64,000 nucleotides of DNA. Origin: an uncultured Planctomycetales bacterium (lineage in GTDB: Bacteria > Planctomycetota > MHYJ01 > JACPRB01). The stretch lies in assembly GCA_964468745.1 (NCBI GenBank), contig CAYXVY010000140.1, forward strand, positions 5,945-69,944, read 5' to 3'. Of this stretch, positions 12,169 to 61,010 are shown piece after piece. Both the position numbers and the translations under genes were made by a program. The first letter of the stretch is position 1; each line of letters begins with the position of its first letter. Under the pieces are notes generated by a model. The model was not told the origin of the DNA. It saw nothing but the letters and a program-made list of their open reading frames with translations, and made no database searches.

Positions 12169-12382
12169 GGTGGCAGGGCAACCTTCGACGGGCGTAAGAG
12201 CGCCCCACAATGTTCTCTCTGTTTCCTCGGCTTCCTCGGTGTTTATCCCCGTCTCGTGTGGAGCGACCGAGATGCATCGGTCTTCCTGAGATCCCCTTGG
12301 CGTTCTTGGCGGCCCATCCCGAAGGTGCGTTGCCGGGTTGCGTCTCTGCGTCAATCGCCTCCACGGCGATCCGCGCTGCGCC

Positions 12383-14284
12383 CTACGTGGCCTGCTCCGC
12401 CTCCAGCCGCCGGAAGTGCGCCATGATCTGCGCGACGCACGCATCCACGTCCGCCTTGTCCGTGCGCACGACGAGATCAGCCTTCTCCGGCGCCTCGTAT
12501 GGCGCGTCGATCCCCGTCACCGACTTCACCTGCCCAGCCCGCGCCTTCTTGTAGATCCCCTTCGGATCGCGCTCCTCACAGACCGCGAGCGGGCAGTCGA
12601 CGAACACCTCGACGAACTCCCCCTGCCGCAGCCCGCCCCGCACGCGGTCGCGGTCCGCCTTCATCGGCGAAATTAGTGCGACAAGCACGATGAGGCCGGA
12701 GTCGCCGAACAGCTTCGCCACCTCGCCCACGCGACGCACGTTCTCCGCCCTGTCTTCCTCGCTGAACCCGAGGTTCGCATTGAGGCCGTGCCGCAGATTG
12801 TCTCCGTCGAGCAGGTACGTCTGGTATCCCGCGTCGAACAGCCGCCGCTCCAGCGCGACGGCGAGCGTGGACTTCCCCGACCCCGAGAGACCCGTGAACC
12901 AGAGGACGCGCCCATGATGGCCGGTGCGCCGCGCGCGCTCGTCCCGCGAGACCTGGCCCGACACGAACGAGATGTTATGGCTCTTGACGCCCGACAACTC
13001 CGAGCGCAGGTCCTTCGTCGCGGCCGTCGAGATGATCCCTCCCCCCTCGATCCGCGCCCCCGCGTGCAGCACGAAACGGCCGAGCTGCGGCACCCCGCCG
13101 AAGTCGTCGATCGCGATCGGCCGCTGCGTCTCGATCGTGACCTCCGCGATCTGGTTGCGCGCCACCGACTGCGCCTCGACGGCACCGAGCGTCGCAACGT
13201 CCACCACCTGGTGGATCTTCACGACGCGGCAGATGACTTCCTGCGACGTGATCTTCAGCAGGTACTCCTTGCCGGGCATGAGGTCCTGTTTCCCCAGCCA
13301 GAACAGGCGCGCGTCGAATCGGTCCGCCTCGACCGGCGCGTTCTCGAGATGCGACGCGATCTGCCCGCGCTCGACGAAGAGCTGCGCGTCGAGCGTGATC
13401 CCGACCGAGTCGCCCGCGTGCGCCTCCGTCACCGGCGGCGCGCTCCAGCGCTCGATCGTCTTGACGAAGCCGGTCTTGTTCCACGGCGAGAACACGAGCT
13501 GATCCCCGACGCGAAGCGTGCCGGACTCGATGCGGCCGGCGAAGATGCGCGTCGTTTCGTTCTGGCGGTAGACGTCCTGGATCGGGAAGCGCAGCGGGCC
13601 GTCGGTGATGGGGACGCGCGACTTGAAGCCGTGCATCGCCTCGGCCACCGTCGGGCCGGTGTACCACGGCATGTCCGTCGCGCGCGCGACGACGTTCGCG
13701 CCCGCCTTCGCGGAGATCGGAATGAACACCGATTTGCCCGCACCGGTTGCCTTCAGGTAGGCCCCGTATTCCTTCTCGATGTCGCGGAAGGTCTGCTCCG
13801 ACCACCCGACGAGATCCATCTTGTTGACGAGCACGGCGACCTGGTGGAGCCCGAGCAGGCGCAGCAGCAGCGCGTGACGGCGCGACTGCTCGCGGATCCC
13901 CTCGCGCGCGTCGACGAGGACGAGCGCGGCGTCGGCCGTCGAAGCCCCCGTGATCATGTTCTTCAGGAATTCTTCGTGCCCGGGCGCGTCGATGATGACG
14001 AACGGGCGTCCGTTGACGTGCATCCAGACGTGCGCGGCGTCGATCGTGATCCCCTGGTCGCGCTCGGCCTGCAGCGCGTCGAGGGCGAACGCGAACTCGA
14101 ATTCGAGACCGCGCTTCTCGGAGATCTTCCGGATCTGTTCGAGCTTCCCTTCCGGGAGCGAACCGGTGTCGTGCATGAGCCGGCCGACGAACGTCGACTT
14201 GCCGTGGTCGACATGGCCGAGCATCACCACGCGGACCGGTGCGGTCGTGGGGGTGACGGCCTTTTCTTTGGTAGTCACGGGCAT
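12383..14284 (-). CDS. cysNC: Bifunctional sulfate adenylyltransferase subunit 1 (GTPase, CysN) fused to adenylylsulfate (APS) kinase (CysC); NodQ-like
   Basis: N-terminal GTPase motifs ([23 protein letters not shown]) of CysN/EF-Tu-like. C-terminal APS kinase ([39 protein letters not shown]-loop kinase signature). 633 aa. Confidence 0.9.
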
Positions 14285-14290
14285 GATTCT

Positions 14291-14520
14291 TCCCGAAGAC
14301 CGCGGAGCTCGCGGAGTTGCCGCAGAGTCGCTTGGGGCGCGGAGAGCTTCCTTCGAGTCCGCCGGCCCGCGCGCAGCGCGGGCGCGGTCAGGCAGATGCC
14401 GGATCCGGAACGCTCGGCCCCTCTTCGCGAGCGTTCCGGATCCGGCATCTGCCTGACTGCTCGTGCGGGCAAAGCCCGCACGCCGGCGGACCTCTGCGCC
14501 CCGAACCCCTCTGCGGTTCC
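14291..14520. repeat. Copy 1 of a ~200-230-bp GC-rich palindromic structured repeat element; it lies in the intercistronic gap between cysD and cysNC
   Basis: Perfect 27-bp inverted repeat (caggcagatgccggatccggaacgctc / gagcgttccggatccggcatctgcctg, ~14389-14455) with loop ggcccctcttcgc. Flanking arms match the second copy at 35641-35845 in inverse orientation (e.g. ctccgcgccccaagcgact, gtgcgggc..gcccgcac). Confidence 0.75.
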
Positions 14521-14557
14521 TCCGCGCGCTCTGCGGTTTGTCTTCATCTTCTGCGGG

Positions 14558-15367
14558 TTACATGTATCCGGAGGTGCGAAGACGCTCGAACGCGTCCTCC
14601 GATTCCTGGTCCTGTGCTCGGCCCGATCTCTCGCTCGTCTTCGTGCGCCGCAGCTCCTCGACGATCTCCGCGACGCTCGTGGCGGTGGACTCGATCATGC
14701 CGGTGCACGGCGCGCATCCGAGGCTGCGGTAGCGGCGTCCGTCCTTCGCGTAGTAGAGGTCGATGATCGGGATCGACTCGCGCTGGATGTACTCCCACAC
14801 GTTGAGTTCGGTCCAGTGGAGCAGCGGATGAATGCGTATGTGCGTGCCGGCCGGGAATTCGGTCTGGTACTGGTCCCAGAATTCCGGGGGCGCGTCGCCG
14901 AAGTTCCACGTGAGGTTCTTGTCGCGCGGCGAGAAGTAGCGCTCCTTCGCGCGCGTGCTCTCCTCGTCGCGGCGGATGCCGAGGAGCAGGCCGTGATACC
15001 CCTTGAGTTCGAGGACCTGCTTGAGGCCCTCCGTCTTGAGCGAGGAGCAGCAGACGACGCGGCCGAGGGTGTGGTTCATCCCGCCGGCGAGGGCGGCGAC
15101 GTTCTTGCCGACCACGAGGTCGAGCCCCAGCTCCTTCGCGACGCGGTCGCGGTACTCGATCATCGACGGGATTTTGTAGGTCGTGTCGACGTGGATGACG
15201 GGGAACGGGACGGCGCCGAAGAATGCCTTGCGGATGAGCCAGAGCAGGACGGTCGAATCCTTGCCGATCGACCAGAGGCACCCGAGGTTTTTCAGCTTCG
15301 CGCGCGCCTCGCGGATGATGTAGACGCTCTGCGCTTCGAGGGCGTCCAAGGGGTCGCGGTGAGCCAT
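14558..15367 (-). CDS. cysD: Sulfate adenylyltransferase subunit 2 (CysD; PAPS reductase-like ATP sulfurylase small subunit)
   Basis: ORF 14558..15367(-). [12 protein letters not shown] (PP-loop), LGIRRDEE, and overall CysD architecture. The ATG is preceded by TTGAGA-n17-TATAAT-n11. Confidence 0.9.
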
Positions 15368-15378: not shown

Positions 15379-15384
15379 ATTATA
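15379..15384 (-). promoter_or_regulatory. -10 box (CCCCTATAATC) with TTGAGA -35 for cysD
   Basis: Minus-strand sequence reads TTGAGAccgcgcgcgcctgcccCTATAATctgcccctctt-ATG(15367). Confidence 0.55.
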
Positions 15385-15486
15385 GGGGCAGGCGCGCGCG
15401 GTCTCAATGGCTGCGCGCGCGTGGGACGTGTGAGGTTGGAGCTTTGAAGGGCGGAACGCGGAACGGTGACCCACCCTTCCAACGAC

Positions 15487-16137: not shown

Positions 16138-16202
16138 CGGCGTTATTCTACTGCGCCGCTTTATGGCGGGGTAGCGGATTCCATTCGGGGTAAGGAACGG
16201 TG

Positions 16203-16872
16203 ATCCGCACCTTCCACCTTCCAACCTCAAACCTCAAACTCCTGCCCCAGTCCCCACCCCGCCTCCGCTCCGCGCCCCACGTCACTCCGCGCTTCCTTGG
16301 CGCGCTCCGCGTTTTCTTCGGGAAGTCCCGGGATGAAGTCACCCGCGGGGTATCCGTTCGCCGCAGACCTTCCGGATTCAACGCAGAGGTCGCTGAAGGA
16401 TTTGGATGGGGGCGAAGTTTTTCCTCCACCATTCCAATGTCCTCTCGGTTACCTCGGCTGCCTCGGTGTTGTCGGAGGGGTGGGGCAGCAGGCGGAAACC
16501 TCGTGGATGACACTGGGCAATCCGAGCAAACAGAGAAGCCCATCCATGCGAGGGCGTTCCCTGCTCCTCCCCTGCGCGCTCCGCGCTTTCTTCGGATAGT
16601 CCCGGGATGAAGTCGCACGCGGAGTATCAATCCGCCTCAGAATGACCCGCACCTTCCAACTTCCAACTTCCAACTTCAAACCTCAAACGCCTCCCCCACT
16701 CCCCATCCCGCCTCCGCTCCGCGCCCCCAGCCACTCTTGTCCTCCTCAGCGGGCTCCGCGTTTTCTTCGGATAGTCCCAGGATGAAGTCGCACGCGGGGT
16801 ATCCGTTCGCCTCAGAATGACCCACACCTTCCAACTTCCAACTTCCAACCTCAAACCTTAGACTCGTCCCCC
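16203..16872. repeat. Tandem array of a ~173-bp repeat (3 full or partial copies plus a fourth partial copy running into the wzm start codon); copy 2 is interrupted by a ~185-bp insert
   Basis: Unit landmarks ccgcaccttccaac(ttccaac)n ctcaaac...ccgcctccgctccgcgcccc...gcgctccgcgttttcttcggatagtcccgggatgaagtcgcacgcggggtatccgttcgcctcagaatgacc recur at ~16203, 16563 (tail only), 16647 and 16820. Each unit has internal heptad microrepeats TTCCAAC x2-3 and CTCAAAC x2. Confidence 0.85.
16859..16864 (+). promoter_or_regulatory. TAGACT -10-like box 8 nt upstream of the wzm ATG (leaderless-type)
   Basis: ccttAGACTcgtccccc-ATG(16873) with no SD. The same TAGACT-n8/9-start arrangement occurs at fcl (47400) and gmd (about 48417). 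Confidence 0.4.
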
Positions 16873-17628
16873 ATGCCCTCCTGGTTCGAGCTCCTGCGCG
16901 CGCTCGTCGCGAAGGACTTCAAGGTCCGCTACAAGAGCACGGCGCTGGGGTTCGTGTGGTCGATCGCGAACCCGGTCATGTTCGGCCTGACGTTCTACGT
17001 GGTCTTCGAGAACGTCTTCCGCGGCGGGCAGAAGAACTTCCTCGTCTTCCTGCTCGCGGGGATGTTCCCGTGGCAGTGGTTTGCGAGCACCGTGGGCGGC
17101 GCGCCCGGCACGTTCGTCGGCAACGCGGGCCTGATCAAGAAGGTCCGGTTCCCGTGGATGCTGCTCCCGACGGCGGCCCTTGTCAGCAACCTCCTGCACT
17201 TCCTGCTGGCGCTGGCGGTGGCCGTCCCGCTCCTCGGGATGAAGGGGATCTGGCCGACACCGGTCTGGCTGATCGGCATTCCGGCCCTGCTCCTCATCCA
17301 GGGGGCGCTGACACTGGGAGTCGCGCTGCTGATCGCATCGATCAACGTCATCTTCCGCGACCTCGAGTACATCACGCAGATCGTGCTGCAGTTGGTATTC
17401 TTCCTCACGCCGATCTTCTACTCGGCAACGGCGCTGCCGGAGGGGACGCGGTCGATCCTGCGCTGGAATCCGATGTGCTACGTGATTCCGGCGTGGCAGG
17501 AGCTGGTGCTGGAGGGCCGCATGCCCTGGCAGACGGCGGGGATCGGCGCGGCGATCGCGGCGGCGACGTTGCTGATCGGCTACGGAGTCTATCGACGGAT
17601 GGAGTGGCGGCTGGCGGAGTCGCTATAG
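16873..17628 (+). CDS. wzm: ABC-2 type polysaccharide export permease (Wzm/TagG/KpsM-like)
   Basis: 251 aa, 6 predicted TM segments, ABC-2 family signature region (FVWSIANPVMFGLTFYVVF...). Confidence 0.8.
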   Translation: MPSWFELLRALVAKDFKVRYKSTALGFVWSIANPVMFGLTFYVVFENVFRGGQKNFLVFLLAGMFPWQWFASTVGGAPGTFVGNAGLIKKVRFPWMLLPTAALVSNLLHFLLALAVAVPLLGMKGIWPTPVWLIGIPALLLIQGALTLGVALLIASINVIFRDLEYITQIVLQLVFFLTPIFYSATALPEGTRSILRWNPMCYVIPAWQELVLEGRMPWQTAGIGAAIAAATLLIGYGVYRRMEWRLAESL

Positions 17629-22106: not shown

Positions 22107-24749
22107 ATGGCGAACGAACAGTTGGGACGCGGCACCGCTGCCTGCACTATCATCGCGAAGAACTACCTCGCCCAAGCGCGCGTGCTCGCGCGTTCATTCA
22201 AGCGCGAACACCCGGACTCCGGAATGTTCGTCCTCGTCATTGACGACATTGAGGGCTTCGTCGACGCTTCGCAGGAACCGTTCGAGACGCTCACGTTAGG
22301 CGAGCTTGCGATCCCCGACGTGCAGTCGCTCTGTTTCAAATACACGGTAATGGAGCTGGCAACGGCGGTGAAGCCGTTCCTGCTGCAATTCCTGCTGGAT
22401 CGACGGGGTGTTCAACGGCTGCTGTACCTGGATCCCGACATCCAGGTGACCAGCGACCTCTCGCAGCTCTTCGAGCGGCTACTGCAGAAGTCGATCATGC
22501 TGACCCCTCACATTACACGCGCGATCGATGACGGGTCGTTCGCGAGCGAGGTCCGCATTATGCAGTCGGGGACGTACAATCTCGGTTTCATCGGGATCTC
22601 GGACACGCCGACGACGCGAGAGATGCTCGCGTGGTGGCAGAAGCGATGCCACGACCACTGCGTGAGCCGTCCAGAGCAGGGCCTGTTCGTCGACCAGAAG
22701 TGGATCGACCTCGTTCCGGGTCTCTTCGGGGATGTGGACGTGATCCGAGAGCCCGGCTACAACGTCGCGTACTGGAACCTCCATGAGCGCGAGGTCACGA
22801 TCAACTCGCCTCCCCTGGTAAACGGCCAGACGCTGCGCTTTTTTCACTTCAGCGGGTATGACCCCGACAAGCCGCACATCGTTTCGAAGCACCAGACCCG
22901 CTTCAACATGAACGAGGTGGGGGACGCGGAGCGCCTCTTCGGAGAGTACGGGCGGCGGCTCGGCGAGGAGGGATATCACGAGAGCATCCGCTGGCCCTAC
23001 TCGTTTGACGCGTTTGACAATGGCGTGCGGATCCTGCCGTTGATGCGCGACCTCTATTATCGCCTGGGCAGCCAGCGGGAGGCGTTTGGCGACCCCTTCG
23101 TAACGAGGGGCGACAACACGTTCTCTCGCTGGATGAATGCGCCTGCGCCGGGCGAGCCGCAATCTCCTCCTTATGTCTCGCACCTGGCAGCGCACTGTTG
23201 GGAGATCCGCGAGGATCTGAGACAAACGTTCCCGGAGTATCGCGGCGCGCAGCGCGCCAGTTTCCTTCGGTGGTTCGCGTCGGACGGCATCGCGTATTTC
23301 GGATTGGATTCCGTGACGGCGGAAGAGATCCGGCGTCAGGCGTCGGGCAACAGGATTCCCGAGCAAGCCATCGCTCCTCGAGCGACGGCCATTTCCAATT
23401 CGGCGCACTGCCGGGTTTGTGCGGTTCAGGCGATACTCGATCGCTGGCGCTTGCGCGCCCCGGCAAAGGAATTGGTGCTGGGGCATGGTGCGCCGAGCCC
23501 GTTGCTGCGGCTGCTGCGCTGGCTGGGAAGGCGCGGAGTGATGACCAACCTCCGGAAGAGTCTCCGTCCCTGTGCCAAACATGAGCTTCTGGTAAAGCGG
23601 CTGGGGGCGGATCTATCGGCTTCGCGCGAGAAGCGAACCTGCGTTGGGCCGTTCGGACTGAACGCGGCAGGGTATTACACGACCGAGAGCGGCATCGGCG
23701 AAGCGGCGCGGCTCATGGCGCGGAGCTTCGAGAGCGTGGAATTGCCGCACGTCCTCATCAACTTCGACCGCAGTTACGGGTTGCGACGCGACGATCGGAC
23801 GTACACGAAATTCTCGACCTCGAACCCGTACGCGATCAATCTGGTGCAGGTGAACGCGGACGAGGTTCCCGCCTTTGTCACCTTCGTGGGTGAGCAGTAC
23901 TTCGAAGGAAAGTACAACATTGGATCGTGGCTCTGGGAGTTGCCGGACTTTCCACTGGATTGGGCGGATCGGTTCGACCGTTTCGACGAGATCTGGGCGT
24001 CGAGCTGTTTCACGGCGGCGGCGCTGCGCAAGGCAACATCGCTTCCCGTCACGGTCGTGCCGTATCCGTTGGCCGCGCCTGCGCCTGTTGTTCATGGTCG
24101 CGACCACTTTGGCATCGCAGAGGACGCTTTCGTCTTCCTCTTCATATTCGATTTCATGAGCGTTTTCGAGCGCAAGAATCCGTTGGCGACGATCGAGGCC
24201 TTCCTGCGTGCGTTTCCCGGGCGCCGCGACGTAAGGCTCGTGATCAAGTGCTCGAATTCGCGGATCGACCCCGAGAATGCAGCTCGCCTCAGACAGGCGG
24301 CGGAGCGCGGACTTGTGCAGATCATTGACGGGTATCTGTCGCGCACCGAAGTAAACGATCTGGTTGCCTGCTGCGACGCCTACGTCTCGCTCCATCGTTC
24401 CGAGGGATTCGGCCTGACGCTCGCGGAGGCGATGACGCGCGGGAAGCCAGTCATTGGCACGGATTTCTCCGGCAACACGGACTTCATGAACGCCTCGAAC
24501 AGCTTTCCAGTGCGCTGCAAGGTCATCGAGCTAACGCGGGACGTGGGACCTTACCGCCGAGGCTCCCGCTGGGCGGAGGCAGACGTCGACCATGCGGCAG
24601 ACCGGATGCGCAACGTGTTGGACGATCGCGAAAGTTCCGCCGCCATCGGCACCGCGGCCGCTGCATATATGGCCGAACACCATAGCCCTACGGCGGTGGG
24701 TGCCACTATCGACGTCCGACTTAGGGCGATCCAAAAGCACATGAGATGA
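22107..24749 (+). CDS. Two-domain glycosyltransferase: N-terminal GT-A-like nucleotide-sugar transferase domain (DxD: YLDPDIQV) + C-terminal GT4 domain
   Basis: N-terminus TIIAKNYLAQARVLARSFK...YLDPDIQV is GT-A-like. C-terminus ...VSLHRSEGFGLTLAEAMTRGKPVIGTDFSGNTDFM is GT4. Confidence 0.7.
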   Translation: MANEQLGRGTAACTIIAKNYLAQARVLARSFKREHPDSGMFVLVIDDIEGFVDASQEPFETLTLGELAIPDVQSLCFKYTVMELATAVKPFLLQFLLDRRGVQRLLYLDPDIQVTSDLSQLFERLLQKSIMLTPHITRAIDDGSFASEVRIMQSGTYNLGFIGISDTPTTREMLAWWQKRCHDHCVSRPEQGLFVDQKWIDLVPGLFGDVDVIREPGYNVAYWNLHEREVTINSPPLVNGQTLRFFHFSGYDPDKPHIVSKHQTRFNMNEVGDAERLFGEYGRRLGEEGYHESIRWPYSFDAFDNGVRILPLMRDLYYRLGSQREAFGDPFVTRGDNTFSRWMNAPAPGEPQSPPYVSHLAAHCWEIREDLRQTFPEYRGAQRASFLRWFASDGIAYFGLDSVTAEEIRRQASGNRIPEQAIAPRATAISNSAHCRVCAVQAILDRWRLRAPAKELVLGHGAPSPLLRLLRWLGRRGVMTNLRKSLRPCAKHELLVKRLGADLSASREKRTCVGPFGLNAAGYYTTESGIGEAARLMARSFESVELPHVLINFDRSYGLRRDDRTYTKFSTSNPYAINLVQVNADEVPAFVTFVGEQYFEGKYNIGSWLWELPDFPLDWADRFDRFDEIWASSCFTAAALRKATSLPVTVVPYPLAAPAPVVHGRDHFGIAEDAFVFLFIFDFMSVFERKNPLATIEAFLRAFPGRRDVRLVIKCSNSRIDPENAARLRQAAERGLVQIIDGYLSRTEVNDLVACCDAYVSLHRSEGFGLTLAEAMTRGKPVIGTDFSGNTDFMNASNSFPVRCKVIELTRDVGPYRRGSRWAEADVDHAADRMRNVLDDRESSAAIGTAAAAYMAEHHSPTAVGATIDVRLRAIQKHMR

Positions 24750-24778
24750 ACCGGCGCGATGTCTGAGCCTGCCGGCGA

Positions 24779-25945
24779 CTACCGTCTGAGCCGCAGCAGA
24801 GCTCGCGTTGTTTCCCCCTCATGGACTGCTTCGCTGAGGATCTCCATGCGGAGTCCAATCGACGCTCCGAGTTTCTTGAAGGCATTCAGATTCCACTCGA
24901 CAAGTGCGCGCGTTCCGCGGGTTTCAGAGACATCCTTCGCACAAAATATATCGGCGAGAATGCGACCTCCATCTCCCATGCACCTCGTGGCGTCAGTTAG
25001 GAGTCCGCGAGACTCATGCGGATAGGTGTGCGTTAGGACGCTCATGAAGAGCACAAAATCGAAGGGTCCTCCAACAATTTCGAGTGGCAGACTGGCGTCC
25101 ATATTCCGCGTGAAGGAAAATGTGGAGCGACTGTAGCGCTGTCTGCAGAAAGCCACAGGCTTTTCCGCGATATCTGTACCGCAGTAGCGCCCCGTCGAAT
25201 CCAAGAAGCTGTGTAGTGGTCGTGTTAACAGCCCTGTTCCGCAACCCACATCGAGTACGCGGGAATTGCGCGCCAATCCAAATTCCATCAACATGCGCAA
25301 CTTGTCGTCGCCCAGTGTGACGAACTGTTCCTCGGACGGAACTCCGACGACCGACCAGTAGTCGCGAGTAAAGTCGGCGTTTTCCCAGACAGTGGCATAT
25401 TCGCCAAAATCGCCAGGCCGCGCTCCAGCGATTTCAACTGTGATCGGTGAGACTCTTGAGCCCCGATCCTTGAACCAGGTAATGTTTTCGTGAACTAAGT
25501 CAAATTCGAGCGTACACAGACTTGGAGTGGCAGGCGCCTGAACTGTCGCGCGAACTAAGACCTCTGCGCCGGAATCAATATCGGTTGGAAAATCGGTCCG
25601 AATCCCGTCATAGACAAGTACTTTCCCGTCTTGTCGCAGCCAATGGTATGCCAGCCGAACGGCATTTGGTTTGTTTCCAGCAGGCCACCGATGGGGAGTA
25701 GCGTTACGAACGCGCACGGGCACTTGAACAATCTCTCCTTCGTGCAGCTTGGCAGGTGCCTCTAGTACGTGGATTTGGGCGCGGTATGCCACGCTGGGCA
25801 TGCTGTCCAGTGGCAAGGTGGGGTCGCCCAACTGCAGTTCTCCTTTTTCTGAGTCCGACTTAGTATCTGAGTTTTGCAGCAGATGCAAGAAGCGATTCGC
25901 CGAGAGCCTTCGAATCTCGCGAGCTATTTCTTCGCCGGTTGACAT
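24779..25945 (-). CDS. Class I SAM-dependent methyltransferase (C-terminal) with a ~190-aa N-terminal domain of unknown function
   Basis: VLDVGCGTGLL (SAM-binding motif I) and downstream motifs (FDFVLFMSVLTH). Noticeably AT-richer than the background. Confidence 0.7.
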   Translation of the reverse strand: MSTGEEIAREIRRLSANRFLHLLQNSDTKSDSEKGELQLGDPTLPLDSMPSVAYRAQIHVLEAPAKLHEGEIVQVPVRVRNATPHRWPAGNKPNAVRLAYHWLRQDGKVLVYDGIRTDFPTDIDSGAEVLVRATVQAPATPSLCTLEFDLVHENITWFKDRGSRVSPITVEIAGARPGDFGEYATVWENADFTRDYWSVVGVPSEEQFVTLGDDKLRMLMEFGLARNSRVLDVGCGTGLLTRPLHSFLDSTGRYCGTDIAEKPVAFCRQRYSRSTFSFTRNMDASLPLEIVGGPFDFVLFMSVLTHTYPHESRGLLTDATRCMGDGGRILADIFCAKDVSETRGTRALVEWNLNAFKKLGASIGLRMEILSEAVHEGETTRALLRLRR

Positions 25946-25982
25946 AGGATCGACGCGCCCGATAAGCTCCGCTGGCGAACGA

Positions 25983-27293
25983 ATGGATAACCACTTGCAT
26001 CGCGTTGAGATTCAGCACGTTGCCCCGACCACCGTTGATCCCTTGGTGCTCTGGGGGGCAGGGCTGAACTCGCCCACGCTTGGTACGAGCGGCAGTTACT
26101 CAATTGGAATTGCAGGTTGGGTATTACCGCGCGCGGGACAAAGGGCTAAAGTCCAGTTCACTTGTGGACGCCGAATCCTCAGTGAACTAGAAATTGACCG
26201 GTGGCGACCTGACGTGCTGAAGCACTTCCCCGATATTCCCGGTGCCGAGCATTGCGGATTCTACGGGTCGCTACGGACGGTAGAACTCCCTAGTCAGTTC
26301 GATATCCAGATCTCCATCAAGTTGGAAGGCCACGGATTGCTTCCCATGACGACCATTCGCGGCTGTCGCAATTCCATCGTTCCTGCGCCGGTGGAATCAC
26401 TGCGTCCAATCTTTATTACATCGTTAGGGCGCTGCGGCTCGACCTATCTCGCCCTGCTGCTAAAAAACCATCCCGAGATAGTAGTTGCTGGCCCCTTCCC
26501 GTACGAAAACCACGTACTCCCTTACTGGGTTTCAGTTTTCGAGACCCTCTCAGCTCCACAGTCTTTCTTAAAGCAGCTCGCCTCGCCCCTGCGTGGACAC
26601 TATTGGTGGCTGGGCGATGCGCGCGACTCAGTAGAGACCTACCTTGAGCGCTTTCCCAACGTAGATCTCGTTGGTGGCGACGCGGTTGACGCAGCCGCAA
26701 CGTTCTGTCGTGCTCGCGTTTACGCGTACGATGCACAACTTGCAGCACGCGTCGGCAAGCCGAAGGCTGTTTATTTCGCCGAGAAGTTACCTCCGTCCGG
26801 CCCCAACCCCCTCGCGGAACAACTGTTCCCCACGACGCGTGAAATCGTACTTCTTCGCGATCCCCGAGACATTATCGCGTCCGTGCTCGCGTTCAATCGA
26901 AAGCGGGGTTTCGCATCGTTTAGCCGCGAACTCGTTCAGAGCGATCTAGAGTATGTGGCTTCCATTCGACATCAGTGGCTCGCGCTGGCCGTCGGATGGC
27001 GGAACCGAAAGACAAATGCGATAGTTGTACGTTACGAAGATCTCATGGAGAAACGTGACGAGACCGTCCGAAGCGTCTTTGGTGCATTGAATCTGTCAGC
27101 TTCTGATGACGTGCTTCGACACGTGGTGGAAGCCTCCGCACAGGAAGATGTCGCTCTTCAAGAAGCTCATATGACATCAACAAGCACTGAAAGTTCGATT
27201 GGCAGATGGAAGCGGGAGCTTCCAAGTGAGCTCCAGAAAGCCTGCAGGGACACCCTAGGTGACGCGCTGGAGGAGTTCGGTTACGCAGTGTAA
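25983..27293 (+). CDS. Sulfotransferase family protein (PAPS-dependent)
   Basis: 5'-PSB motif ITSLGRCGSTYLALLL and 3'-PB motif LLRDPRDIIASV. Track ORF 25749..27293 overlaps the convergent methyltransferase gene by ~200 bp. Starting at the internal Met (MDNHLH..., 25983) removes the overlap and the low-complexity N-terminus. Confidence 0.75.
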   Translation: MDNHLHRVEIQHVAPTTVDPLVLWGAGLNSPTLGTSGSYSIGIAGWVLPRAGQRAKVQFTCGRRILSELEIDRWRPDVLKHFPDIPGAEHCGFYGSLRTVELPSQFDIQISIKLEGHGLLPMTTIRGCRNSIVPAPVESLRPIFITSLGRCGSTYLALLLKNHPEIVVAGPFPYENHVLPYWVSVFETLSAPQSFLKQLASPLRGHYWWLGDARDSVETYLERFPNVDLVGGDAVDAAATFCRARVYAYDAQLAARVGKPKAVYFAEKLPPSGPNPLAEQLFPTTREIVLLRDPRDIIASVLAFNRKRGFASFSRELVQSDLEYVASIRHQWLALAVGWRNRKTNAIVVRYEDLMEKRDETVRSVFGALNLSASDDVLRHVVEASAQEDVALQEAHMTSTSTESSIGRWKRELPSELQKACRDTLGDALEEFGYAV

Positions 27294-27412
27294 CCGCGCT
27301 TACCACGCTTTACTGGCATATCGAAAGTCAACGCCTCCGGACTTCGACGCGCGTACGCGCACCATTTCCTGATTCTGTCTCCGGTCTCCTGAATTCTGTA
27401 TCCTCTCCGCAC

Positions 27413-28150
27413 ATGCGCCACCGGTCCGAAGTCGCCTACTTCCAGCCCACCAGCTGGACTGTCGTCGAAGAAGCGCAGGACAAGGCCGGACCCGCGGCGC
27501 GTGCCGCCTACGAACGGCTCGCCGCCGGCTACTGGAAACCCACCTTCTTCTTCCTCCGCAAGCGCGGGCTCCGGCGCGAGAACGCCGAAGACGCCACCCA
27601 GGACTTCTTCGCCTACTTCTTCGACCGCGACTTCATCCAGAACGCCGACCCCGCCAAGGGGAAGTTCCGCACCTTCATCATCGCCCACCTCGAAAACTTC
27701 CTCGCCAACCAGCGGCGTAACGCCCACACCGTGCGACGCGGCAAAGGCACCCACACCATCAGCGCCGACTTCGGCGATGCCGAGCAGGAACTCTCCGGCA
27801 TGCCCGCCTCCATCGAAACCGCCGACGCCGTCTTCCTCCGCTCGTGGGCCCTCGAAACGATGGCCAAGGCGTGGGAGCTGCTCCGCCTCAAGATGATCGA
27901 GAGCGGCGAAGGCCACTACTTCGGCCCCCTCCACACCTTCTTCAACAACGTGAAGGACCGGCCCACCCGCGCCCAGCTCGAGGAACAGCTCGGCCTGTCC
28001 TACAAACAAGTCGACCACCTCATCGACGGGACGCGCAAGCAGTTCAAGGATCAGCTCCGCCTCGTCGTCCGTCCCACGGTCGAAAACGAGAGCGAAGTGA
28101 AGGCGGAAATCGTCGCACTCTTCGACGCCCTGGGCGCGACTCAGCCGTAA
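27413..28150 (+). CDS. ECF-type RNA polymerase sigma factor (sigma-70 regions 2 and 4)
   Basis: Region 2 (ENAEDATQDFFAYFF...FRTFIIAHLENFLANQRR) and a region 4 HTH (RAQLEEQLGLSYKQVDHLIDGTRKQFKDQL). 245 aa. Confidence 0.8.
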   Translation: MRHRSEVAYFQPTSWTVVEEAQDKAGPAARAAYERLAAGYWKPTFFFLRKRGLRRENAEDATQDFFAYFFDRDFIQNADPAKGKFRTFIIAHLENFLANQRRNAHTVRRGKGTHTISADFGDAEQELSGMPASIETADAVFLRSWALETMAKAWELLRLKMIESGEGHYFGPLHTFFNNVKDRPTRAQLEEQLGLSYKQVDHLIDGTRKQFKDQLRLVVRPTVENESEVKAEIVALFDALGATQP

Positions 28151-28273: not shown

Positions 28274-28774
28274 ATGAACGCAAACGTAAACAAGAAGGAC
28301 GGGGGCGAAACGACGCCGAAGGGCGTCCTGCCGCGGCAGGACGATGCACCGGCTTCCCAGCGCACCACCGTGGCGCGGCACGACGCTGCACCGGAATCCC
28401 AGCGCGCCTCCGTGGCGGGGCACGGCATTGCACCGGCTTCCCAGCGCACCACCGTGACGCGGCACGACAGCACATCGGCTTCCCAGCGCACTTCCGTGCC
28501 GAGTCACGACACTGCATCGGCATCTCGACGCACCTCCATGGCGGGGCATGGCACTGCATCGGCAACCCGGCGCACTAGCGTGGCGGGGCACGGCGCTGCA
28601 CTGGCCACCCGGCGCACTTCCGTGCCGCGGCACGACACTGCACCGGCATCCCGATGCACCTCCGTGACGCGGCAGGACGTCGGGATCGCGATCCTCACCC
28701 ACTTCGATCGAGGACCTCCTGTGCATCCATCGCTCTCACGCAGTAACGCGACGGGGAGTGTTTCCCCGTCGTGA
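28274..28774 (+). CDS. Repetitive Ser/Thr/Arg/His-rich protein (8 x 14-aa repeats) encoded directly downstream of the ECF sigma factor; strand assignment tentative
   Basis: AGGGAG-like SD before the ATG at 28274. Body is 8 near-identical 14-residue units (APASQRTTVARHDA...). The complementary strand is also open (PRHGGALGSRC... repeats), so strand is not certain. Confidence 0.35.
   Translation: MNANVNKKDGGETTPKGVLPRQDDAPASQRTTVARHDAAPESQRASVAGHGIAPASQRTTVTRHDSTSASQRTSVPSHDTASASRRTSMAGHGTASATRRTSVAGHGAALATRRTSVPRHDTAPASRCTSVTRQDVGIAILTHFDRGPPVHPSLSRSNATGSVSPS
28346..28681. repeat. 42-bp tandem repeat x8
   Basis: Units gcaccggcttcccagcgcaccaccgtggcgcggcacgacgct and variants are repeated 8 times head-to-tail (28346, 28388, ... 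28640). Confidence 0.9.
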
Positions 28775-29554: not shown

Positions 29555-29745
29555 ACACCGCACAGTCGCGAGAACGGGGAAGCGGGAAGCGAGAATCGAC
29601 CCGCGACTCGATCGAAGGGCGATGGGAGACGTCAGGTTGCACGCACCCTCCATCCGCGCGATCGAACGTTGAGGTCGTGACTCGCTTCCCCTTCCCCGGA
29701 TCTCCACACCGTTCCCTTTTTCAAACAATTTGATACTCTTCCGAG

Positions 29746-29811
29746 CGGCCTTGCGGCCTCGCTCACCATGAACGGATTCGACTCGGCCTTGCGGCCTCGC
29801 TCACCATGAAC
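29746..29811 (+). repeat. 28-bp direct duplication (cggccttgcggcctcgctcaccatgaac x2) spanning the kinase start codon; the upstream copy creates a 13-codon uORF overlapping the kinase ATG
   Basis: Copies at 29746-29773 and 29784-29811. uORF atg(29768)...tga(29807-29809) = MNGFDSALRPRSP*. Its stop overlaps ATG 29806 (ccATGAac). Confidence 0.8.
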
Positions 29812-34540: not shown

Positions 34541-35512
34541 ATGCGACTCGATCGCAGCCCCCGCCGCGCGTCGAAGGTCTTGACACCCCGCACGGGCACG
34601 GTTACCGTCACCCCCGCGCACGTGGGGAATGGAATAGTGAATCGGCCGTCGGTCGCCGTCGTTCTCACCTCCTACAACGGCAAAGACGACACGCTGGAGT
34701 GCCTGCGCTCCCTGGCTGCCCTCACCTACCCGAACTACTCCGTCATCGTCATGGACGACGCCTCCGGCGACCGCACCGCCGACACCGTCGCGCGCGACTT
34801 CCCCAGCGTCCGCGTCGTCCACAACCCGAAGAATCTCGGCTATATCCGCAACCTCAACCGCGGCGTCATGCTGTCGATGGACGCCGACTACATTCTCATC
34901 CTCAACAACGACCTGACGGTCGCGCCTGACCTGATCGACCGACTCGTCGACGTCGCGGAACGCGACCCCAGGATCGCGCTCTGTGGTCCGGAAATGTATC
35001 GCTATCACGAACCCGACACGCTGTGGGCCGCGGGCGGCGACGTTTCGCCTTGGACCGGGCGTTCCTACCATCACGAGACGAACGGTCTCGCGGGACCCGC
35101 CGATGTGGGCTACATCCCGGGCGCGGCCATGCTCGTCCGGCGCGATGCCTTCGAGCAGATCGGTTTCTTCGAAGCCGCGTACCATGCGTACTTCGAGGAA
35201 GTGGACTTCGCGTTCCGTCTGCGCCGCAGGGGCCACCGCGTCGTCTGCGTCCCGGACGCGCGCATCTGGCACAAGGTCAGCGCGACGATGACGCGCGTGC
35301 TCTCCCCCGAGCAGCGCAAGTTCTACGGCGTGCGCAATCGCCGCTGGGTGCTGCGCAGCCATGCGTCCCCCTGGAAACGCCCGCTGCTCCACGCCATCGA
35401 CGCCGTCGCGAGCGCCTTCCACTTCGCGTACACCATGGCGCGCTCCCCCGGCGAGGCCGGCGCCGTCTTCCGCGGCTACTGCGCCGGGTGGCGGCCAGTC
35501 ACACCCAGCTGA
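34541..35512 (+). CDS. Glycosyltransferase family 2 (real start probably the GTG near 34637)
   Basis: VAVVLTSYNGKDDTLECLRSL...VIVMDDASGDRT...FEEVDFAFRLRRRGHRV. Confidence 0.75.
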   Translation: MRLDRSPRRASKVLTPRTGTVTVTPAHVGNGIVNRPSVAVVLTSYNGKDDTLECLRSLAALTYPNYSVIVMDDASGDRTADTVARDFPSVRVVHNPKNLGYIRNLNRGVMLSMDADYILILNNDLTVAPDLIDRLVDVAERDPRIALCGPEMYRYHEPDTLWAAGGDVSPWTGRSYHHETNGLAGPADVGYIPGAAMLVRRDAFEQIGFFEAAYHAYFEEVDFAFRLRRRGHRVVCVPDARIWHKVSATMTRVLSPEQRKFYGVRNRRWVLRSHASPWKRPLLHAIDAVASAFHFAYTMARSPGEAGAVFRGYCAGWRPVTPS

Positions 35513-35640
35513 TCTCTCAGGCCCTTTTAACGCCGAGAGCGCAGACGCGCTGCAGAAGAGAGCGCAGGTTTGTGGTGGAACGTGGGGCGTGGTCCTTCCG
35601 GAACTTCCGGACAACCGCTGAGCGCGCAGGGGCAAGCAGA

Positions 35641-35845
35641 GGGGTTCCGGGCGCTGAGGTGTCCGCCGCCGTGCGGGCAACGCCCGCACGAGCGGCCACG
35701 CAGAAGCCGTTTCCGAAACGCCCAGCCCTTCTTCGGGAGCGTTTCGGAAACGGCTTCTGCGTGGCCGCGCCCGCGCTACGCGCGGGCCGGCGGACCCGAA
35801 AGAAGCTCTCCGCGCCCCAAGCGACTCCTGTCCTCCTCTGCGTTC
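35641..35845. repeat. Copy 2 of the ~200-bp palindromic structured repeat element; lies between the convergent GT2 and GT2-GT-C genes
   Basis: Perfect 22-bp inverted repeat (gcagaagccgtttccgaaacgc / gcgtttcggaaacggcttctgc, ~35700-35760), loop ccagcccttcttcggga. Arms ggggttccgggcgctgaggtgtccgccgccgtgcgggcaacgcccgcac and gcgcgggccggcggacccgaaagaagctctccgcgccccaagcgact match copy 1 (inverted). Confidence 0.75.
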
Positions 35846-35893
35846 TCTGCGGTTGTCCGGCAGGCGAGCGGAGATTTGATGCCCCGCGTGTCT

Positions 35894-37990
35894 CTAGTTC
35901 GCCTTGAACACGGACACCCCCTCGAACCGCGCGACCCGTTGCCCGATCTTCTCGAGCTCCTCGAGCGCACCCGGCGCCTCTTTGCGCAGATCTTTCTCCA
36001 CCACGATCGCGTACTCCCCATCGCGCAGCTCCACTCGTCGACCCGGCAGGATCGGCTCCGACCGCCGACCGACGTACCACTCCACCCGCTGCGTGTTCGA
36101 CCACAGGCCCGACGGCGACTGCGCCTTCACCCACAGCGCCGCTTCCTTCACCGGCCGATCCTCAGTTCGACGCGGCCGCGCGCTCGCCACCACCATCCCC
36201 GTCAGCGCGACGCCGATCGCGATCGACGACGCGACACGCACGAGCTTGGCGCGGGCCCGCGACGCCAGCCAGTCGATGAACGCCACCGCCGCCGCCGCCG
36301 CGAGGGGCAGTACGAAGAGCACCGGCAGCAAGACCTGTCGCTGGCTCACCATGTATCCGCTCGCCGCCGCGAGGATCGGCCCCAGCATCGCCCCCGCGCT
36401 CAGGCAGAGCAGGAACGCCAAGCCGAGCGGACGCACCCGACCGCGCAGAAACCAGATCCCCAGCGCCAGCGGCGGAAGCACGAGCCACGCGAGACTCTTG
36501 AGCTTCGACGCGTAGCGCGCGAACGCGGCCCCCCACCCCGACTCCAGCGGCGCGTGTGGCCCCATCGGGGGAAGCTCGGGCCGCTTGCCGAGCGACTGCA
36601 TCGCCGCCTGCACGCCTCCGCGCCACGTGATCTTCCACTCCCCGGTGAGCTCCCTCCAGAAGTTGAGCAGCGGCATCGCCGCGGCCACGAACACCGCCGC
36701 ACCAGCCACTGCCGACCCCGCGACTCCCCAACGAAACGGACGGCGCATCAGAGCGATGCCCACCAGCGCGATCGGCACGTAAATCCCCTCGGGTCGGACA
36801 TAGTACGCCAGCGCGCCGACAAGCCCCGACGCGATCGTGAGCCCCGCGCTCCCCCGCATGACCCCGAACCACGCGAGCGAAATCGCGCTGATGAAGAACA
36901 GGTGGAACAGTCCCTCCGTCATCACGTCCGCGTGCGCCTGCGCGTAGTACGGCGCGCACGCGAAGAGCAGCGCCGCCAGCATGCCCGCCCGCCGGCCCGT
37001 CACGTCCATCGCCAGCGCGAGGAACGGCGCGACGGCCAGCGCCCCCGCCAGCGCCGAGACGAGATACCCCGCGCGCTCCCAGTCTCCGATCAGCGAATGC
37101 GCGGCCGCGATCGCGACCGGATATCCCGGATGAATTCCGTGCCCCATCCACGTCTTCCAAGTCCCCTGCGTCAAATCCTGCGCGGCGAAGAGATAGGAGG
37201 ACGCATCGGTCGTCAGCACTTCCGTGAGCGACGCCTGCACCATGCGCAGCGCGAACGCGAGGAGCACGATGCCGATCGGCGCCGCCATCGCCACCGCGTA
37301 CCACTTGAGGTAGTGCGGCAGCCACTTCAGGATTCTGAAGCGGCTCTCGCCCGCGGTGCGGTCCTCCCACGTGCTCGGCACTTCAGCGACGTTCCATCCG
37401 CGCACGTGCGCCTTCACCGTCATCTCGAGGCCGAGCTCGAACCCCGCCTCGCTCTGCACCGGCACCTTCGACAGGAACTCGCGACTGTACGCGCGGAAGT
37501 TGTTCGTAGCGTCGTGGGTCGCGACGCCGGCGAGCCAGTGGAGCGACAGGCCGGCCGCGCGCGAGCCGAGCCGTTTCAGGAGCGGTCCTCCCTTTTGCGA
37601 CCCACCCGGCATGTACCGCGAGCCGCTGACGACGTGCGCCCCCTCGTCGCGGATCTTCCGCGCCATCGCACGGATGATCTCCGGCGGATCGGAGAGGTCT
37701 GCCATCGTGACGACGACGACGTCCCCTGTCGCCGCCGCCATGCCGGCCCGGATCGCGAACGCGGGACCGCGTCCGAGGTCGTTCTTCACGAGCCGGACGC
37801 TCGGCGGCTTGTCGGGCATCGCGGCGATTGCGGCGAGCGTGCGGTCCTCGTCGAAGTCGTAGCAGACGAGGAGCTCGTGATCCTCCGAGGCCAGAGCGTG
37901 TGCCAGTCGCCGCAGGCACTCGGCGATGTTTCGGTCTTCGTTGTAGACCGGGATGACGACGCTGACGCGGCGAGCAATCAGAGGGGGCAT
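35894..37990 (-). CDS. Fusion protein: polyprenyl-phosphate glycosyltransferase (GT2, DPM1/GtrB/ArnC-like) + large C-terminal polytopic membrane domain (GT-C-like)
   Basis: N-terminus RVSVVIPVYNEDRNIAECLRRL...DFDEDRT...LVKNDLGRGPAFAIRAGM is the Dpm1/GtrB-type GT2. It is followed by >400 aa of TM helices. Track start TTG 38011; preferred ATG 37990 (MPPLIARR), 10 nt after a TATAAC -10. Confidence 0.6.
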   Translation of the reverse strand: MPPLIARRVSVVIPVYNEDRNIAECLRRLAHALASEDHELLVCYDFDEDRTLAAIAAMPDKPPSVRLVKNDLGRGPAFAIRAGMAAATGDVVVVTMADLSDPPEIIRAMARKIRDEGAHVVSGSRYMPGGSQKGGPLLKRLGSRAAGLSLHWLAGVATHDATNNFRAYSREFLSKVPVQSEAGFELGLEMTVKAHVRGWNVAEVPSTWEDRTAGESRFRILKWLPHYLKWYAVAMAAPIGIVLLAFALRMVQASLTEVLTTDASSYLFAAQDLTQGTWKTWMGHGIHPGYPVAIAAAHSLIGDWERAGYLVSALAGALAVAPFLALAMDVTGRRAGMLAALLFACAPYYAQAHADVMTEGLFHLFFISAISLAWFGVMRGSAGLTIASGLVGALAYYVRPEGIYVPIALVGIALMRRPFRWGVAGSAVAGAAVFVAAAMPLLNFWRELTGEWKITWRGGVQAAMQSLGKRPELPPMGPHAPLESGWGAAFARYASKLKSLAWLVLPPLALGIWFLRGRVRPLGLAFLLCLSAGAMLGPILAAASGYMVSQRQVLLPVLFVLPLAAAAAVAFIDWLASRARAKLVRVASSIAIGVALTGMVVASARPRRTEDRPVKEAALWVKAQSPSGLWSNTQRVEWYVGRRSEPILPGRRVELRDGEYAIVVEKDLRKEAPGALEELEKIGQRVARFEGVSVFKAN

Positions 37991-38374
37991 GAGTTCATGA
38001 GTTATAACCAAGCTCCACTGCCGACACCGTCTTGCCCGATCAACACAGAGGAATCCGAGGACACCGAGAAGATTGGGATGGGGTAGTTACGCCCGCTTGG
38101 AGGATACCTCCGGGCTGCGATATTGCGCGCTGCAATGGGATCATCGGACGCGACACCGAGATATCGGAGGGAACCGAGAAGAGGCCGTGGGGGGATCGCA
38201 GACCGCCTCGGTCGCCACGGTGACACGAAGATCTGCCGGCTCCCACGACGAGGAGTGAATGTCCCCTCCAAAAGCCTTCTCGGTTGACTCGGATGACTCG
38301 GTGTTCATCCGCGTCCTGCCGCGCTCATACTCACGTTCTCTGATTTCCGGTCTTCGCATCGGTATAGTGTCTCG

Positions 38375-58588: not shown

Positions 58589-58700
58589 TGAGTTCTGGGT
58601 TTTGAGTCGTGAGTCGGACCGGCCTCTGATCACTCATAACTCAAAACTCATAACTCGCTGCGTCGTGTATACTCAGACCCCACTTATCTAGGAGAGCGTC

Positions 58701-59303
58701 ATGTTGCGTAGCCTTGCGTTGTCCGCTGCGATCGCTTTTGGCGCAGCCTGTATTCCCGTGACCGTCAACCTCACGTTCGCCTTCCCGCCCAAGGAGATGG
58801 AGCAGAAGCTCATCGACATGGAGAAGAAGGTGCGCGAGGTGGAGGACAAGCCGAAGAGCCCCGCGGCCGCGTTCGATCCCGTGGCGGATCAAGACCAGGG
58901 GGTAAACATCACCGTCGAGACCCCTGCCATCAAGGAGATCAACGAGCGTCGCAAGAAGCGCGCGGGCGAACTCAAGGGACACTTCGAGGCCGGGCGCGTC
59001 GGCGAAGGGAACGACGCCCGAGTCACCGAGCGCGAGACGGGCGATCTCGCCGGCAAGGACAAGGCCGCGTTCAAGAAGCTCGTGAATGCGGAGAACGACG
59101 ACCGCGAGAATCTCGTCAAGGAGATCCTGAAGGCCAACAAGCTCGCCGACGATCAGCTTGGCAACGTTCGCGGTATCTATGCCCGGGCACTGCGCAAGGT
59201 CGCCGCGGTCGGCTGGTGGTTCCAGACGGCCAAAGGGACCTGGCTCAAGAAAACCGCGGAGCACCAGAAAAAACTCGAGAAAGATGAGGAAATCGACCAG
59301 TAA
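58701..59303 (+). CDS. YdbL-like (DUF1318) periplasmic protein, possibly with an N-terminal YnbE-like lipoprotein segment
   Basis: C-terminal half GRVGEGNDARVTERE...LVNAENDDRENLVKEILKAN...GIYARALRKVAAVGWWFQTAKGTWLKK matches the YdbL pattern (G.VGE...N..R...Y...A...G.W.Q...G.W.K). N-terminus has a signal/lipobox-like GAAC and IPVTVNLTF. Good SD (AGGAGA). Confidence 0.5.
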   Translation: MLRSLALSAAIAFGAACIPVTVNLTFAFPPKEMEQKLIDMEKKVREVEDKPKSPAAAFDPVADQDQGVNITVETPAIKEINERRKKRAGELKGHFEAGRVGEGNDARVTERETGDLAGKDKAAFKKLVNAENDDRENLVKEILKANKLADDQLGNVRGIYARALRKVAAVGWWFQTAKGTWLKKTAEHQKKLEKDEEIDQ

Positions 59304-60989: not shown

Positions 60990-61010
60990 GCGGGATCTCT
61001 GGGGAGGACT

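Follow-up and report, generated by a model that had tools for sequence, protein, structure and literature searches.

Two inverted copies of a palindromic, non-coding repeat of about 260 nt lie in the 64-kb stretch of DNA analysed here (the window), one between convergent glycosyltransferase genes (copy 2) and one between cysD and cysNC (copy 1). In our view, this element is probably a non-coding, mosaic palindromic repeat of intergenic DNA, restricted to its lineage and dispersed at the DNA level, and of the general kind of MITEs, REPINs, BIMEs and bcr1. Both copies fold into the same multi-branched structure, in which base changes on one side of a stem are matched on the other, and copy 1 occupies a site that is free of the element in relatives.

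Anatomy of the repeat and upkeep of its pairing

The element is real and lies far beyond chance. Repeat finding in the window joined 14289-14502 to 35650-35863 through two inverted-repeat pairs (I1 and I2), and the two copies align with 83% column identity. Three conserved anchors of 26-32 nt have exactly two occurrences each in the window, where 100 shuffles gave an expectation of 0. A covariance model of the 136-nt core assigned the two copies 146.8 and 145.7 bits, and no other match in the window exceeded 18 bits. The GC content of the core is 74-75%, and the sequences that flank copy 1 and copy 2 are unrelated to each other.

These results bear out the original prediction of a second copy of a palindromic structured element, and the inverted-repeat pairing agrees with its opposite orientation relative to copy 1. 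The extent first given, 35641-35845, falls inside the element but is too short, as the outer inverted arms (pair I7) run from 35604 to 35863. The central stem had been described as a different, perfectly paired 22-bp stem. It is perfectly paired, but over 30 bp, and it corresponds to the stem of copy 1, from which it departs by seven compensated base-pair switches; the loop is different.

Table 1. Positions of the element, its parts, the solo arm modules and the neighbouring genes in the window
Feature	Position	Strand	Evidence or remark
Copy 2, whole (~260 nt)	35604..35863	+	outer arms 35604-35632 / 35835-35863, 29 nt, 83% complementary (I7)
Copy 2 left arm, 5' half of outer stem	35604..35660	+	degenerate CCGCAGAG-type iterations
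Copy 2 closing stem, 5' half (GTCCGCCG)	35661..35668	+	pairs with 35788-35795; identical in both copies
Copy 2 hairpin 1 (CGTGCGGGC-AAC-GCCCGCACG)	35670..35690	+	9-bp stem, 3-nt loop
Copy 2 central hairpin	35692..35768	+	30-bp stem (35692-35721 with 35739-35768), 17-nt loop; self-BLAST 30/30 complementary
Copy 2 hairpin 3 (GCCCGCGC-TAC-GCGCGGGC)	35769..35787	+	8-bp stem, 3-nt loop
Copy 2 closing stem, 3' half (CGGCGGAC)	35788..35795	+	
Copy 2 right arm, 3' half of outer stem	35796..35863	+	3 CTCYGCG iterations
Copy 1, whole	14291..14545	-	occupies most of the 273-nt cysD-cysNC spacer; alignment, fold
Copy 1 core (closing stem and three hairpins)	14357..14491	-	covariance model
Copy 1 central stem	14387-14416 with 14428-14457	-	perfect 30 bp, 11-nt loop; self-BLAST
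Solo arm module (CTCCGCGCCCC...CTCCGCG...TTCTTCGGGAAG)	16268..16330	+	in a repeat-rich spacer; family D8, alignment A3, motif cluster
Third solo arm module, partial	16565..16600	+	
Second solo arm module	16717..16780	+	31 nt at 90% identity to copy 2 right arm
cysNC (GTPase subunit fused to APS kinase)	12383..14284	-	Pfam; N-terminus compared with relatives
cysD (sulfate adenylyltransferase subunit 2), upstream of copy 1	14558..15367	-	Pfam PAPS_reduct, homologues
GT2 glycosyltransferase gene	34541..35512	+	Pfam PF00535, E 9e-27; stop ~90 nt before copy 2
GT2 and PMT_2 (GT-C type) fusion gene, convergent, 698-aa product	35894..37990	-	Pfam; stop ~30 nt past copy 2

In both copies, an imperfect outer stem leads to an 8-bp closing stem, which carries hairpin 1, the central hairpin and hairpin 3 in a four-way junction or cloverleaf. 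Read in the direction of copy 2, the arms are about 60-70 nt long and hold three to four iterations each, of CCGCAGAG in the left arm and of CTCYGCG in the right arm, at irregular spacings of 18, 11 and 8 nt. A 26-nt block of the right arm of copy 2, GAAGCTCTCCGCGCCCCAAGCGACTC, recurs unchanged in copy 1. The closing stem and the stems of both small hairpins are invariant between the copies while the loops of these small hairpins vary; in hairpin 1, all three loop positions differ, AAC in copy 2 versus TTT in copy 1. Hairpins 1 and 3 are not inverted copies of one another.

As RNA, the element strand is predicted to fold with -171.6 kcal/mol in copy 2 (z -10.0) and -196.0 kcal/mol in copy 1 (z -14.5). 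The opposite strands, with -170.3 and -207.1 kcal/mol respectively, fold equally well or better, so that no one transcribed strand is indicated. The core of copy 2 also folds strongly as single-stranded DNA (-80 kcal/mol, z -13.7).

Of the 86 pairs that RNAalifold predicts from the two-copy alignment, eight carry two-sided changes that keep the pair, two carry one-sided changes that keep it, and none is broken. The central hairpin accounts for seven of the eight double changes. The two copies differ in 10.5% of the paired columns (18/172) versus 53.6% of the unpaired ones (37/69). If 12 substitutions fell at random in a 30-bp stem, six complementary pairs would result with a probability of about 6e-10, a conservative estimate as fewer pairs were entered than observed. 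Four of the six central-stem switches that were classified by hand are of the transversion type (C-G to G-C, A-U to U-A, U-A to G-C) and thus have no wobble (G-U) intermediate. Such switches suggest template-switch copying of one arm onto the other, strong selection of double mutants, or the exchange of a whole hairpin. Template-switch correction of quasi-palindromes is an established process. Altogether, the base-pairing of the element is actively maintained.

Besides the two full copies, the window holds three solo arms, all in the repeat-rich spacer at 16.2-16.8 kb (Table 1). In a motif scan of the window, clusters of CTCYGCG were limited to the arms of the element and one solo arm. In the relative whose cysD is 92% identical at the nucleotide level, the arm signature CTCCGCGCCCCAAGC recurs upstream of the ABC-2 gene. 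The arm module is a repeat in its own right. It is accompanied by palindromic intergenic repeats with CCGAG/CTCGG arms at 61936-62028 and 38153-38304, and by another palindromic repeat, at 29570-29704, with GGGAAGCG-type arms; in these repeats, too, the arms iterate a short motif, though not CTCYGCG. The lineage is rich in mosaic fold-back repeats.

Sites of the two copies and search for related elements

Copy 1 lies on the sense strand of cysD and cysNC, and the start codon of cysNC is a few nucleotides from the right arm that ends the copy. In the two nearest relatives with usable contigs (L010 and L012, CysD 79% and 75% identical), there is no spacer but a 38-nt overlap between cysD and cysN, and the first 13 codons of cysN are inside cysD. 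This ancestral cysN ATG within cysD is lost in the window, where a new start gives the same N-terminal length. In L016, the relative with 92% nucleotide identity in cysD, the cysD stop codon is directly followed by an unrelated AT-rich palindrome. None of the three relatives examined has the element at the orthologous site. A junction that is unoccupied in distant relatives and holds other palindromes in close ones is the pattern that would be expected of insertion and not of a functional site passed down by descent.

The gene order cysNC, cysD, ABC-2 gene, ABC_tran and GT2 is the same in L012, across the site of copy 1. Since this order is conserved, the two copies are not the ends of a mobile 21-kb unit, and a composite transposon or mobile unit of that size bounded by both copies was rejected.

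At cysD-cysNC, the sole sigma-70-like promoter match is directly upstream of cysD, where it is the best such match in 20 kb (11/12 positions); none was found in the spacer. Transcription of cysNC thus probably depends on read-through across copy 1.

Copy 2 has a different setting. Pfam assignments agree with its predicted position between the 3' ends of a GT2 gene and a GT2-GT-C fusion gene. The window as a whole is a sulfated-polysaccharide biosynthesis region with many GT2 and GT4 glycosyltransferases, sulfotransferases, cysD and cysNC, and it further encodes an ABC-2 exporter, a sugar transferase, a flippase and a GDP-mannose dehydratase. The source organism is sparsely sampled: most of the window proteins are the sole members of their 90%-identity clusters, and the best homologue of the GT2 protein encoded next to copy 2 is merely 45% identical. 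The two copies have the same orientation relative to the gene upstream (n=2).

The search for related elements covered several collections. Rfam 15 gave no match in the whole window at gathering thresholds and, at relaxed thresholds, just generic long-hairpin matches to miRNA precursor models, with at most 45 bits versus thresholds of 65-168. The pattern GCCCGCGCNNNGCGCGGGCCGGCGGA retrieved eight loci from the contigs of 185,579 species-representative genomes, none of them related: all are Streptomyces or Kitasatospora sequences that do not contain hairpin 1. In JGI metagenome contigs, the left anchor had no match and the right anchor four chance matches, three of which are in apparent coding sequence. 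The hairpin 1 pattern found one isolated hairpin in viral contigs and not the element, and sensitive blastn gave no match in plasmids and phages. Finally, the core covariance model, run with filters off on the window and on the relatives' loci, returned no further copies. The sequence family of the element thus appears to be undescribed, while its kind, a structured palindromic intergenic repeat, is familiar.

As for the means of mobility, no transposase, recombinase, integrase or RAYT was found by Pfam among the ~38 window ORFs scanned. By inspection, no direct repeat flanks copy 2 that could be a target-site duplication, and copy 1 alone has a weak GAAGA-like match.

Other classes of structured DNA were considered and set aside. 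The ends GGACAAC / GTTGTCC deviate from the RYYYAAC ... GTTRRRY consensus of integron attC sites, the window has no integrase, and the neighbours are not cassettes but the large glycosyltransferase genes and cysDN. A retron, a group II intron and a bridge RNA were each rejected on the lack of matching motifs, Rfam matches or partner genes.

Dispersal as DNA or function as RNA

We propose that the element, which is built from two inverted arm modules of about 65 nt, with iterated CTCYGCG, that flank the 136-nt cloverleaf core, came to its present sites by inserting into or dispersing through intergenic DNA, irrespective of the transcription of neighbouring genes. Two processes could keep the stems paired. 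The folded single-stranded DNA may be recognised by a transposase or recombinase that acts in trans, analogous to the recognition proposed for REPINs in their 'clover' form (PMC3116915) and for IS200/IS605-type enzymes. Alternatively, intra-strand template switching at replication may perfect quasi-palindromes with short loops. Where it is transcribed, the element would form an extremely stable RNA that includes a perfect 30-bp duplex; this RNA may stand in the way of 3' exonucleases, give RNase III a cleavage target in the duplex, or delay RNA polymerase and ribosomes, effects for which REP/BIME and Correia elements provide precedents (PMC3184786, PMC2649163). Uncoupled translation of cysD and cysNC would be another plausible side effect. 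Such RNA-level effects are probably secondary and not the reason for the element's existence.

Several observations count against a mobile repeat. Two full copies are known, from 64 kb of genome. There is no evident target-site duplication, the ~38 window ORFs include neither a transposase nor a RAYT gene, and the searches found no related element elsewhere, so that mobility rests on one site that is unoccupied in relatives. Moreover, the invariant small hairpins and the compensated changes also fit an RNA function selected by the host.

This last point leads to the reading of the element as a host-selected RNA processing or stability element, at which RNase III would cut or 3'-to-5' exonucleases would halt, and which could set the levels of cysD versus cysNC and stabilise the glycosyltransferase mRNAs. 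We judge it unlikely. It would account for the conservation of pairing through compensated changes and for the placement of both copies after an upstream stop codon in the same orientation, and there are precedents in the stabilisation of mRNAs by REP/BIME and in the binding and cleavage of Correia elements by RNase III (PMC3184786, PMC2649163). However, with two copies a shared orientation is a 50% coincidence, most of the compensated switches are of the transversion type without a wobble intermediate, and the element is missing from the orthologous site in three of three relatives. The folding energy also has no strand asymmetry, and on this symmetry strand-specific RNA selection was rejected.

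The original prediction saw in copy 2 a plausible bidirectional intrinsic terminator in a genome that lacks U-tract terminators. An intrinsic terminator is a GC-rich hairpin followed immediately by a U-rich tract of 7-9 nt. A consensus terminator scan of 35300-36100 returned no site with a hairpin and T-tract, and on neither strand of copy 2 does a T-run follow the central stem, hairpin 3 or the outer stem when the sequence is inspected; a weak TTTGTCTTCA tail is present on the antisense side of copy 1 alone. The premise about the genome is contradicted by a canonical terminator at 61876-61910, an 11-bp GC stem followed by TTTTTTGTT about 20 nt past the stop codon of a gene. Copy 2 does lie between convergent 3' ends, but copy 1 is inside the cysD-cysNC pair, between genes that overlap in relatives. 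Taken together, the missing T-tract, the location of copy 1 and the U-tract terminator elsewhere in the window leave the proposed role as an intrinsic terminator unsupported.

Spelled out, the idea of the original prediction is a bidirectional terminator or insulator that does not depend on a U-tract, in which the multi-branched GC-rich RNA would halt RNA polymerase from either side and so keep polymerases on the convergent glycosyltransferase genes from colliding and from reading into the opposite gene in antisense. The position of copy 2 exactly between two convergent 3' ends and the extreme stability of the structure on both strands speak for it, and an enrichment of REP-type repeats between convergent genes has been reported for some genomes (PMC3184786). 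We nonetheless regard it as quite unlikely, given that no stem is followed by a T-tract on either strand, that a canonical hairpin with U-tract is in use at 61876-61910, and that a strong stop at copy 1 would split the two subunits of one enzyme. Moreover, in the best-studied GC-rich system, the one tested biochemically, the RNA polymerase (mycobacterial) does not terminate in vitro at hairpins without U-tracts (PMC3993855). Pausing, partial termination or Rho-assisted effects may occur at the element in vivo.

A more specific idea, which we offer as a long shot, is that the cloverleaf core, with its two invariant small hairpins and its freely covarying 30-bp hairpin, is the recognition structure of an undescribed, structure-specific single-stranded DNA transposition system or, alternatively, a host-domesticated, U-tract-free RNA insulator in the sulfated-polysaccharide cluster of this almost unsampled lineage.

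We find it very unlikely that the element is a protein-binding or recombination site, in which the arms or a cruciform would bind a nucleoid protein, a gyrase- or IHF-like factor or a recombinase, and the inverted copies could let the 21-kb polysaccharide segment between them invert. Each arm does consist of three to four iterations of a short motif whose clusters are confined to the element and solo arm modules, two inverted copies bracket polysaccharide genes, and BIMEs are known to bind IHF and gyrase (PMC3184786). Against this, the spacing of the motifs is irregular, no recombinase gene was found in the window, the copies are just 83% identical, and relatives keep their gene order across copy 1.

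Finally, there is a negligible chance that the element encodes a small protein and, as an insert, preserves translational coupling in the way that has been proposed for MIRUs: while a 90-aa ORF (14275-14547, - strand) starts 10 nt past the cysD stop, spans copy 1 exactly and has a stop that overlaps the start region of cysNC (ATGCCCGTGA), open frames are common in both copies, indels of 1 nt and 2 nt shift the frame between them, compensated stem changes replace amino acids by very different ones, a search of 5.8 billion proteins with the six-frame peptides gave no homologue, and copy 2 has no equivalent start or coupling.

The peptide shared by spurious ORFs, which had been attributed to the repeat, was indeed found in the ORFs at 35023-35907 (+) and 14275-14547 (-). 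It is a by-product of the repeat, as claimed: the 1-nt and 2-nt indels are in the left arm, and nearly all six frames are open, with four of six frames free of stops in copy 1 and three of six in copy 2, as goes with a GC-rich palindrome. The search with concatenated six-frame translations of both copies, which would also have caught spurious ORFs on further copies, gave no match at E <= 10, and a protein-coding element was rejected on the frame shifts between copies and the absent homologues.

Comparison with known repeats and significance

The dispersed intergenic repeat that we favour has points in common with several described families. In REPINs, too, two conserved modules lie inverted on either side of a spacer that retains its length and its capacity to form a hairpin through compensatory changes, and the RAYT transposase that mobilises them has been proposed to recognise an alternative 'clover' fold (PMC3116915). 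They likewise leave solo modules as presumed remnants and have intergenic copies in either orientation (PMC3116915). However, the arms here are ~65 nt of iterated motifs, whereas REP palindromes are imperfect, ~20-35 nt long (up to ~40) and present in high copy number. The element is also longer, ~260 nt versus roughly 70-110 nt for a REPIN, and its small hairpins are not mutually inverted. In REPIN systems the repeats flank the gene of their RAYT (Y1 transposase); no such gene was found among the ~38 window ORFs scanned.

MITEs such as Correia/CREE, Chunjie and ERIC are likewise non-coding elements of 100-300 bp with terminal inverted repeats and a stable predicted transcript (PMC10969869, PMC2649163, PMC3184786). 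They insert in intergenic DNA, including inside operons in the case of Chunjie (PMC10969869), and copy 1 is similarly placed within cysD-cysNC. MITEs alter expression through RNase III, promoters or IHF (PMC10969869, PMC2649163, PMC3184786). As a class they have many copies per genome; the 64 kb analysed here contain two full copies and three solo arms. The present element resembles them in being short and non-coding, in its terminal inverted repeats and in its presence or absence at the orthologous cysD-cysN site. Where a typical MITE is AT-rich, is flanked by target-site duplications and has a parent IS that matches it, the element has a GC-rich core, no evident duplication and no known parent IS; such duplications are lost in older MITEs (PMC10969869).

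The bcr1 repeat of the Bacillus cereus group is comparable as a dispersed repeat of ~155 bp with a cruciform-like multi-stem structure and compensatory changes (PMC3184786), and its distribution is not conserved among close strains (PMC3184786). In contrast to the element described here, bcr1 has 5-bp direct repeats, is AT-rich, belongs to Firmicutes and is known to be transcribed. The two have no sequence similarity, and the core here is made of three hairpins on a closing stem.

With BIME, RIME and BOX elements, the repeat shares a module, here the arm, that occurs recombined or alone, and the clustering of repeat families in the same spacers (PMC3184786, PMC10969869). The modules and the organism are other ones, and binding of IHF or gyrase is a feature of BIMEs.

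With intrinsic terminators and SPRITEs, the element has in common a GC-rich hairpin past stop codons, copy 2 being located between convergent genes. It departs from them in the missing U-tract, in a 30-bp stem, far longer than is usual for a terminator, set in a four-way junction, and in the location of copy 1 within a gene pair that is probably co-transcribed. Altogether, the element works in the manner of a REPIN, MITE or bcr1-type repeat but can be assigned to no named family: no target-site duplication is evident, no parent IS or RAYT was found, its arm is not a REP unit, and its sequence resembles no described element.

That structured intergenic repeats undergo compensatory changes is already well known. 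What the present case explains is why the annotation of this genome contains spurious ORFs with peptides in common, and it is a caution that a GC-rich hairpin between convergent genes need not be a terminator. It also provides a small, clean case of an insertion that separates the overlapping cysD and cysN without destroying the pair. If the genome holds many copies, the element, with its invariant small hairpins next to a perfect central stem that covaries, would become a good model for how palindromic repeats keep their pairing and for identifying the enzyme that moves them.

U-tract termination and a run of paralogous genes

The original prediction started from the premise that this GC-rich genome lacks U-tract terminators. 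A gene ends at 61856, and about 20 nt past its stop codon we found a textbook intrinsic terminator (see table), which shows that U-tract terminators are in use in this genome. This gene belongs to a run of paralogues, at least two of which (ends 60989 and 61856) carry Lys/Glu-rich low-complexity C-terminal tails of the KKEEKKEEEKKEDKK type; HEAT repeats are present in one paralogue of the run.

Features of the window and of the relative's locus L016
Feature	Position	Strand	Description
Second palindromic intergenic repeat family	12207-12244, 16434-16471, 38153-38304, 61936-62028		Arms: 3x CCGAG/CTCGG
Sigma-70-like promoter match	15379-15407	-	TTGAGA, 17-nt spacer, TATAAT; 11/12 positions
Repeat-rich spacer	16200-16880		640 nt; upstream of ABC-2 transporter gene
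Tandem repeat, 42-nt unit	28332-28678		8.3 copies, 78% match
Third palindrome with iterated-motif arms	29570-29704		Arms GGGAAGCGGGAAGCGAGAA ... CTCGCTTCCCCTTCCCC
Run of paralogous genes	58700-62900		Repeat families D2-D4
Intrinsic terminator	61876-61910	+	11-bp GC-rich stem, then TTTTTTGTT
AT-rich palindrome, TCATTG-iterated arms	L016 2377-2470 (NCBI GCA_040960765.1, contig JBFOMR010082213.1)		Arms GATTGATTCATTGAATCATTG ... CAATGACTCAATGAATCAATGATC

Other palindromes and the repeat-rich spacer

The second palindromic family (arm example AACACCGAGAAAGCCGAGTCATCCGAGAGG ... CCTCTCGGTTTTCTCGGATCTCTCGGTGTT) shares with the cloverleaf repeat the design of arms built from an iterated motif, but differs from it in sequence. 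The third palindrome sits in the spacer preceding a Ser/Thr kinase gene; after it, at 29741-29807, comes a direct repeat with ggccttgcggcctcgctcaccatgaac.

The spacer upstream of the ABC-2 gene contains units of about 175 nt that are 85-88% identical; these units join the cloverleaf repeat's arm module to (CCTTCCAA)n/(CCTCAAA)n simple repeats and a conserved GGATGAAGTCGCACGCGGGGTATCC block. In the relative's locus L012, the spacer from cysD to the ABC-2 gene is just 121 nt, compared with 640 nt in the window.

The cysD neighbourhood

In L016, the locus of a relative whose cysD is 92% identical at the nucleotide level, the AT-rich palindrome follows the cysD stop codon, at the place where the window has the cloverleaf repeat; the L016 contig stops 140 nt past this stop codon. 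On the 5′ side of cysD, the promoter match is the strongest sigma-70-like one in the first 20 kb of the window. Its end and the cysD start codon are 12 nt apart, which suggests that the predicted cysD transcript would be leaderless or have a very short leader.

A low-GC segment and a tandem repeat

The GC content falls to 58-59% at 24000-28000, while the window as a whole stands at about 65%. At 24.7-27.4 kb we found no ORF with high third-position GC. The 24000-28000 segment may be a part of the polysaccharide cluster that was gained by horizontal transfer.

The 42-nt tandem repeat lies within an ORF (28274-28774, + strand), and its predicted product would be a 14-residue repeat rich in Ser, Thr, Arg and His.
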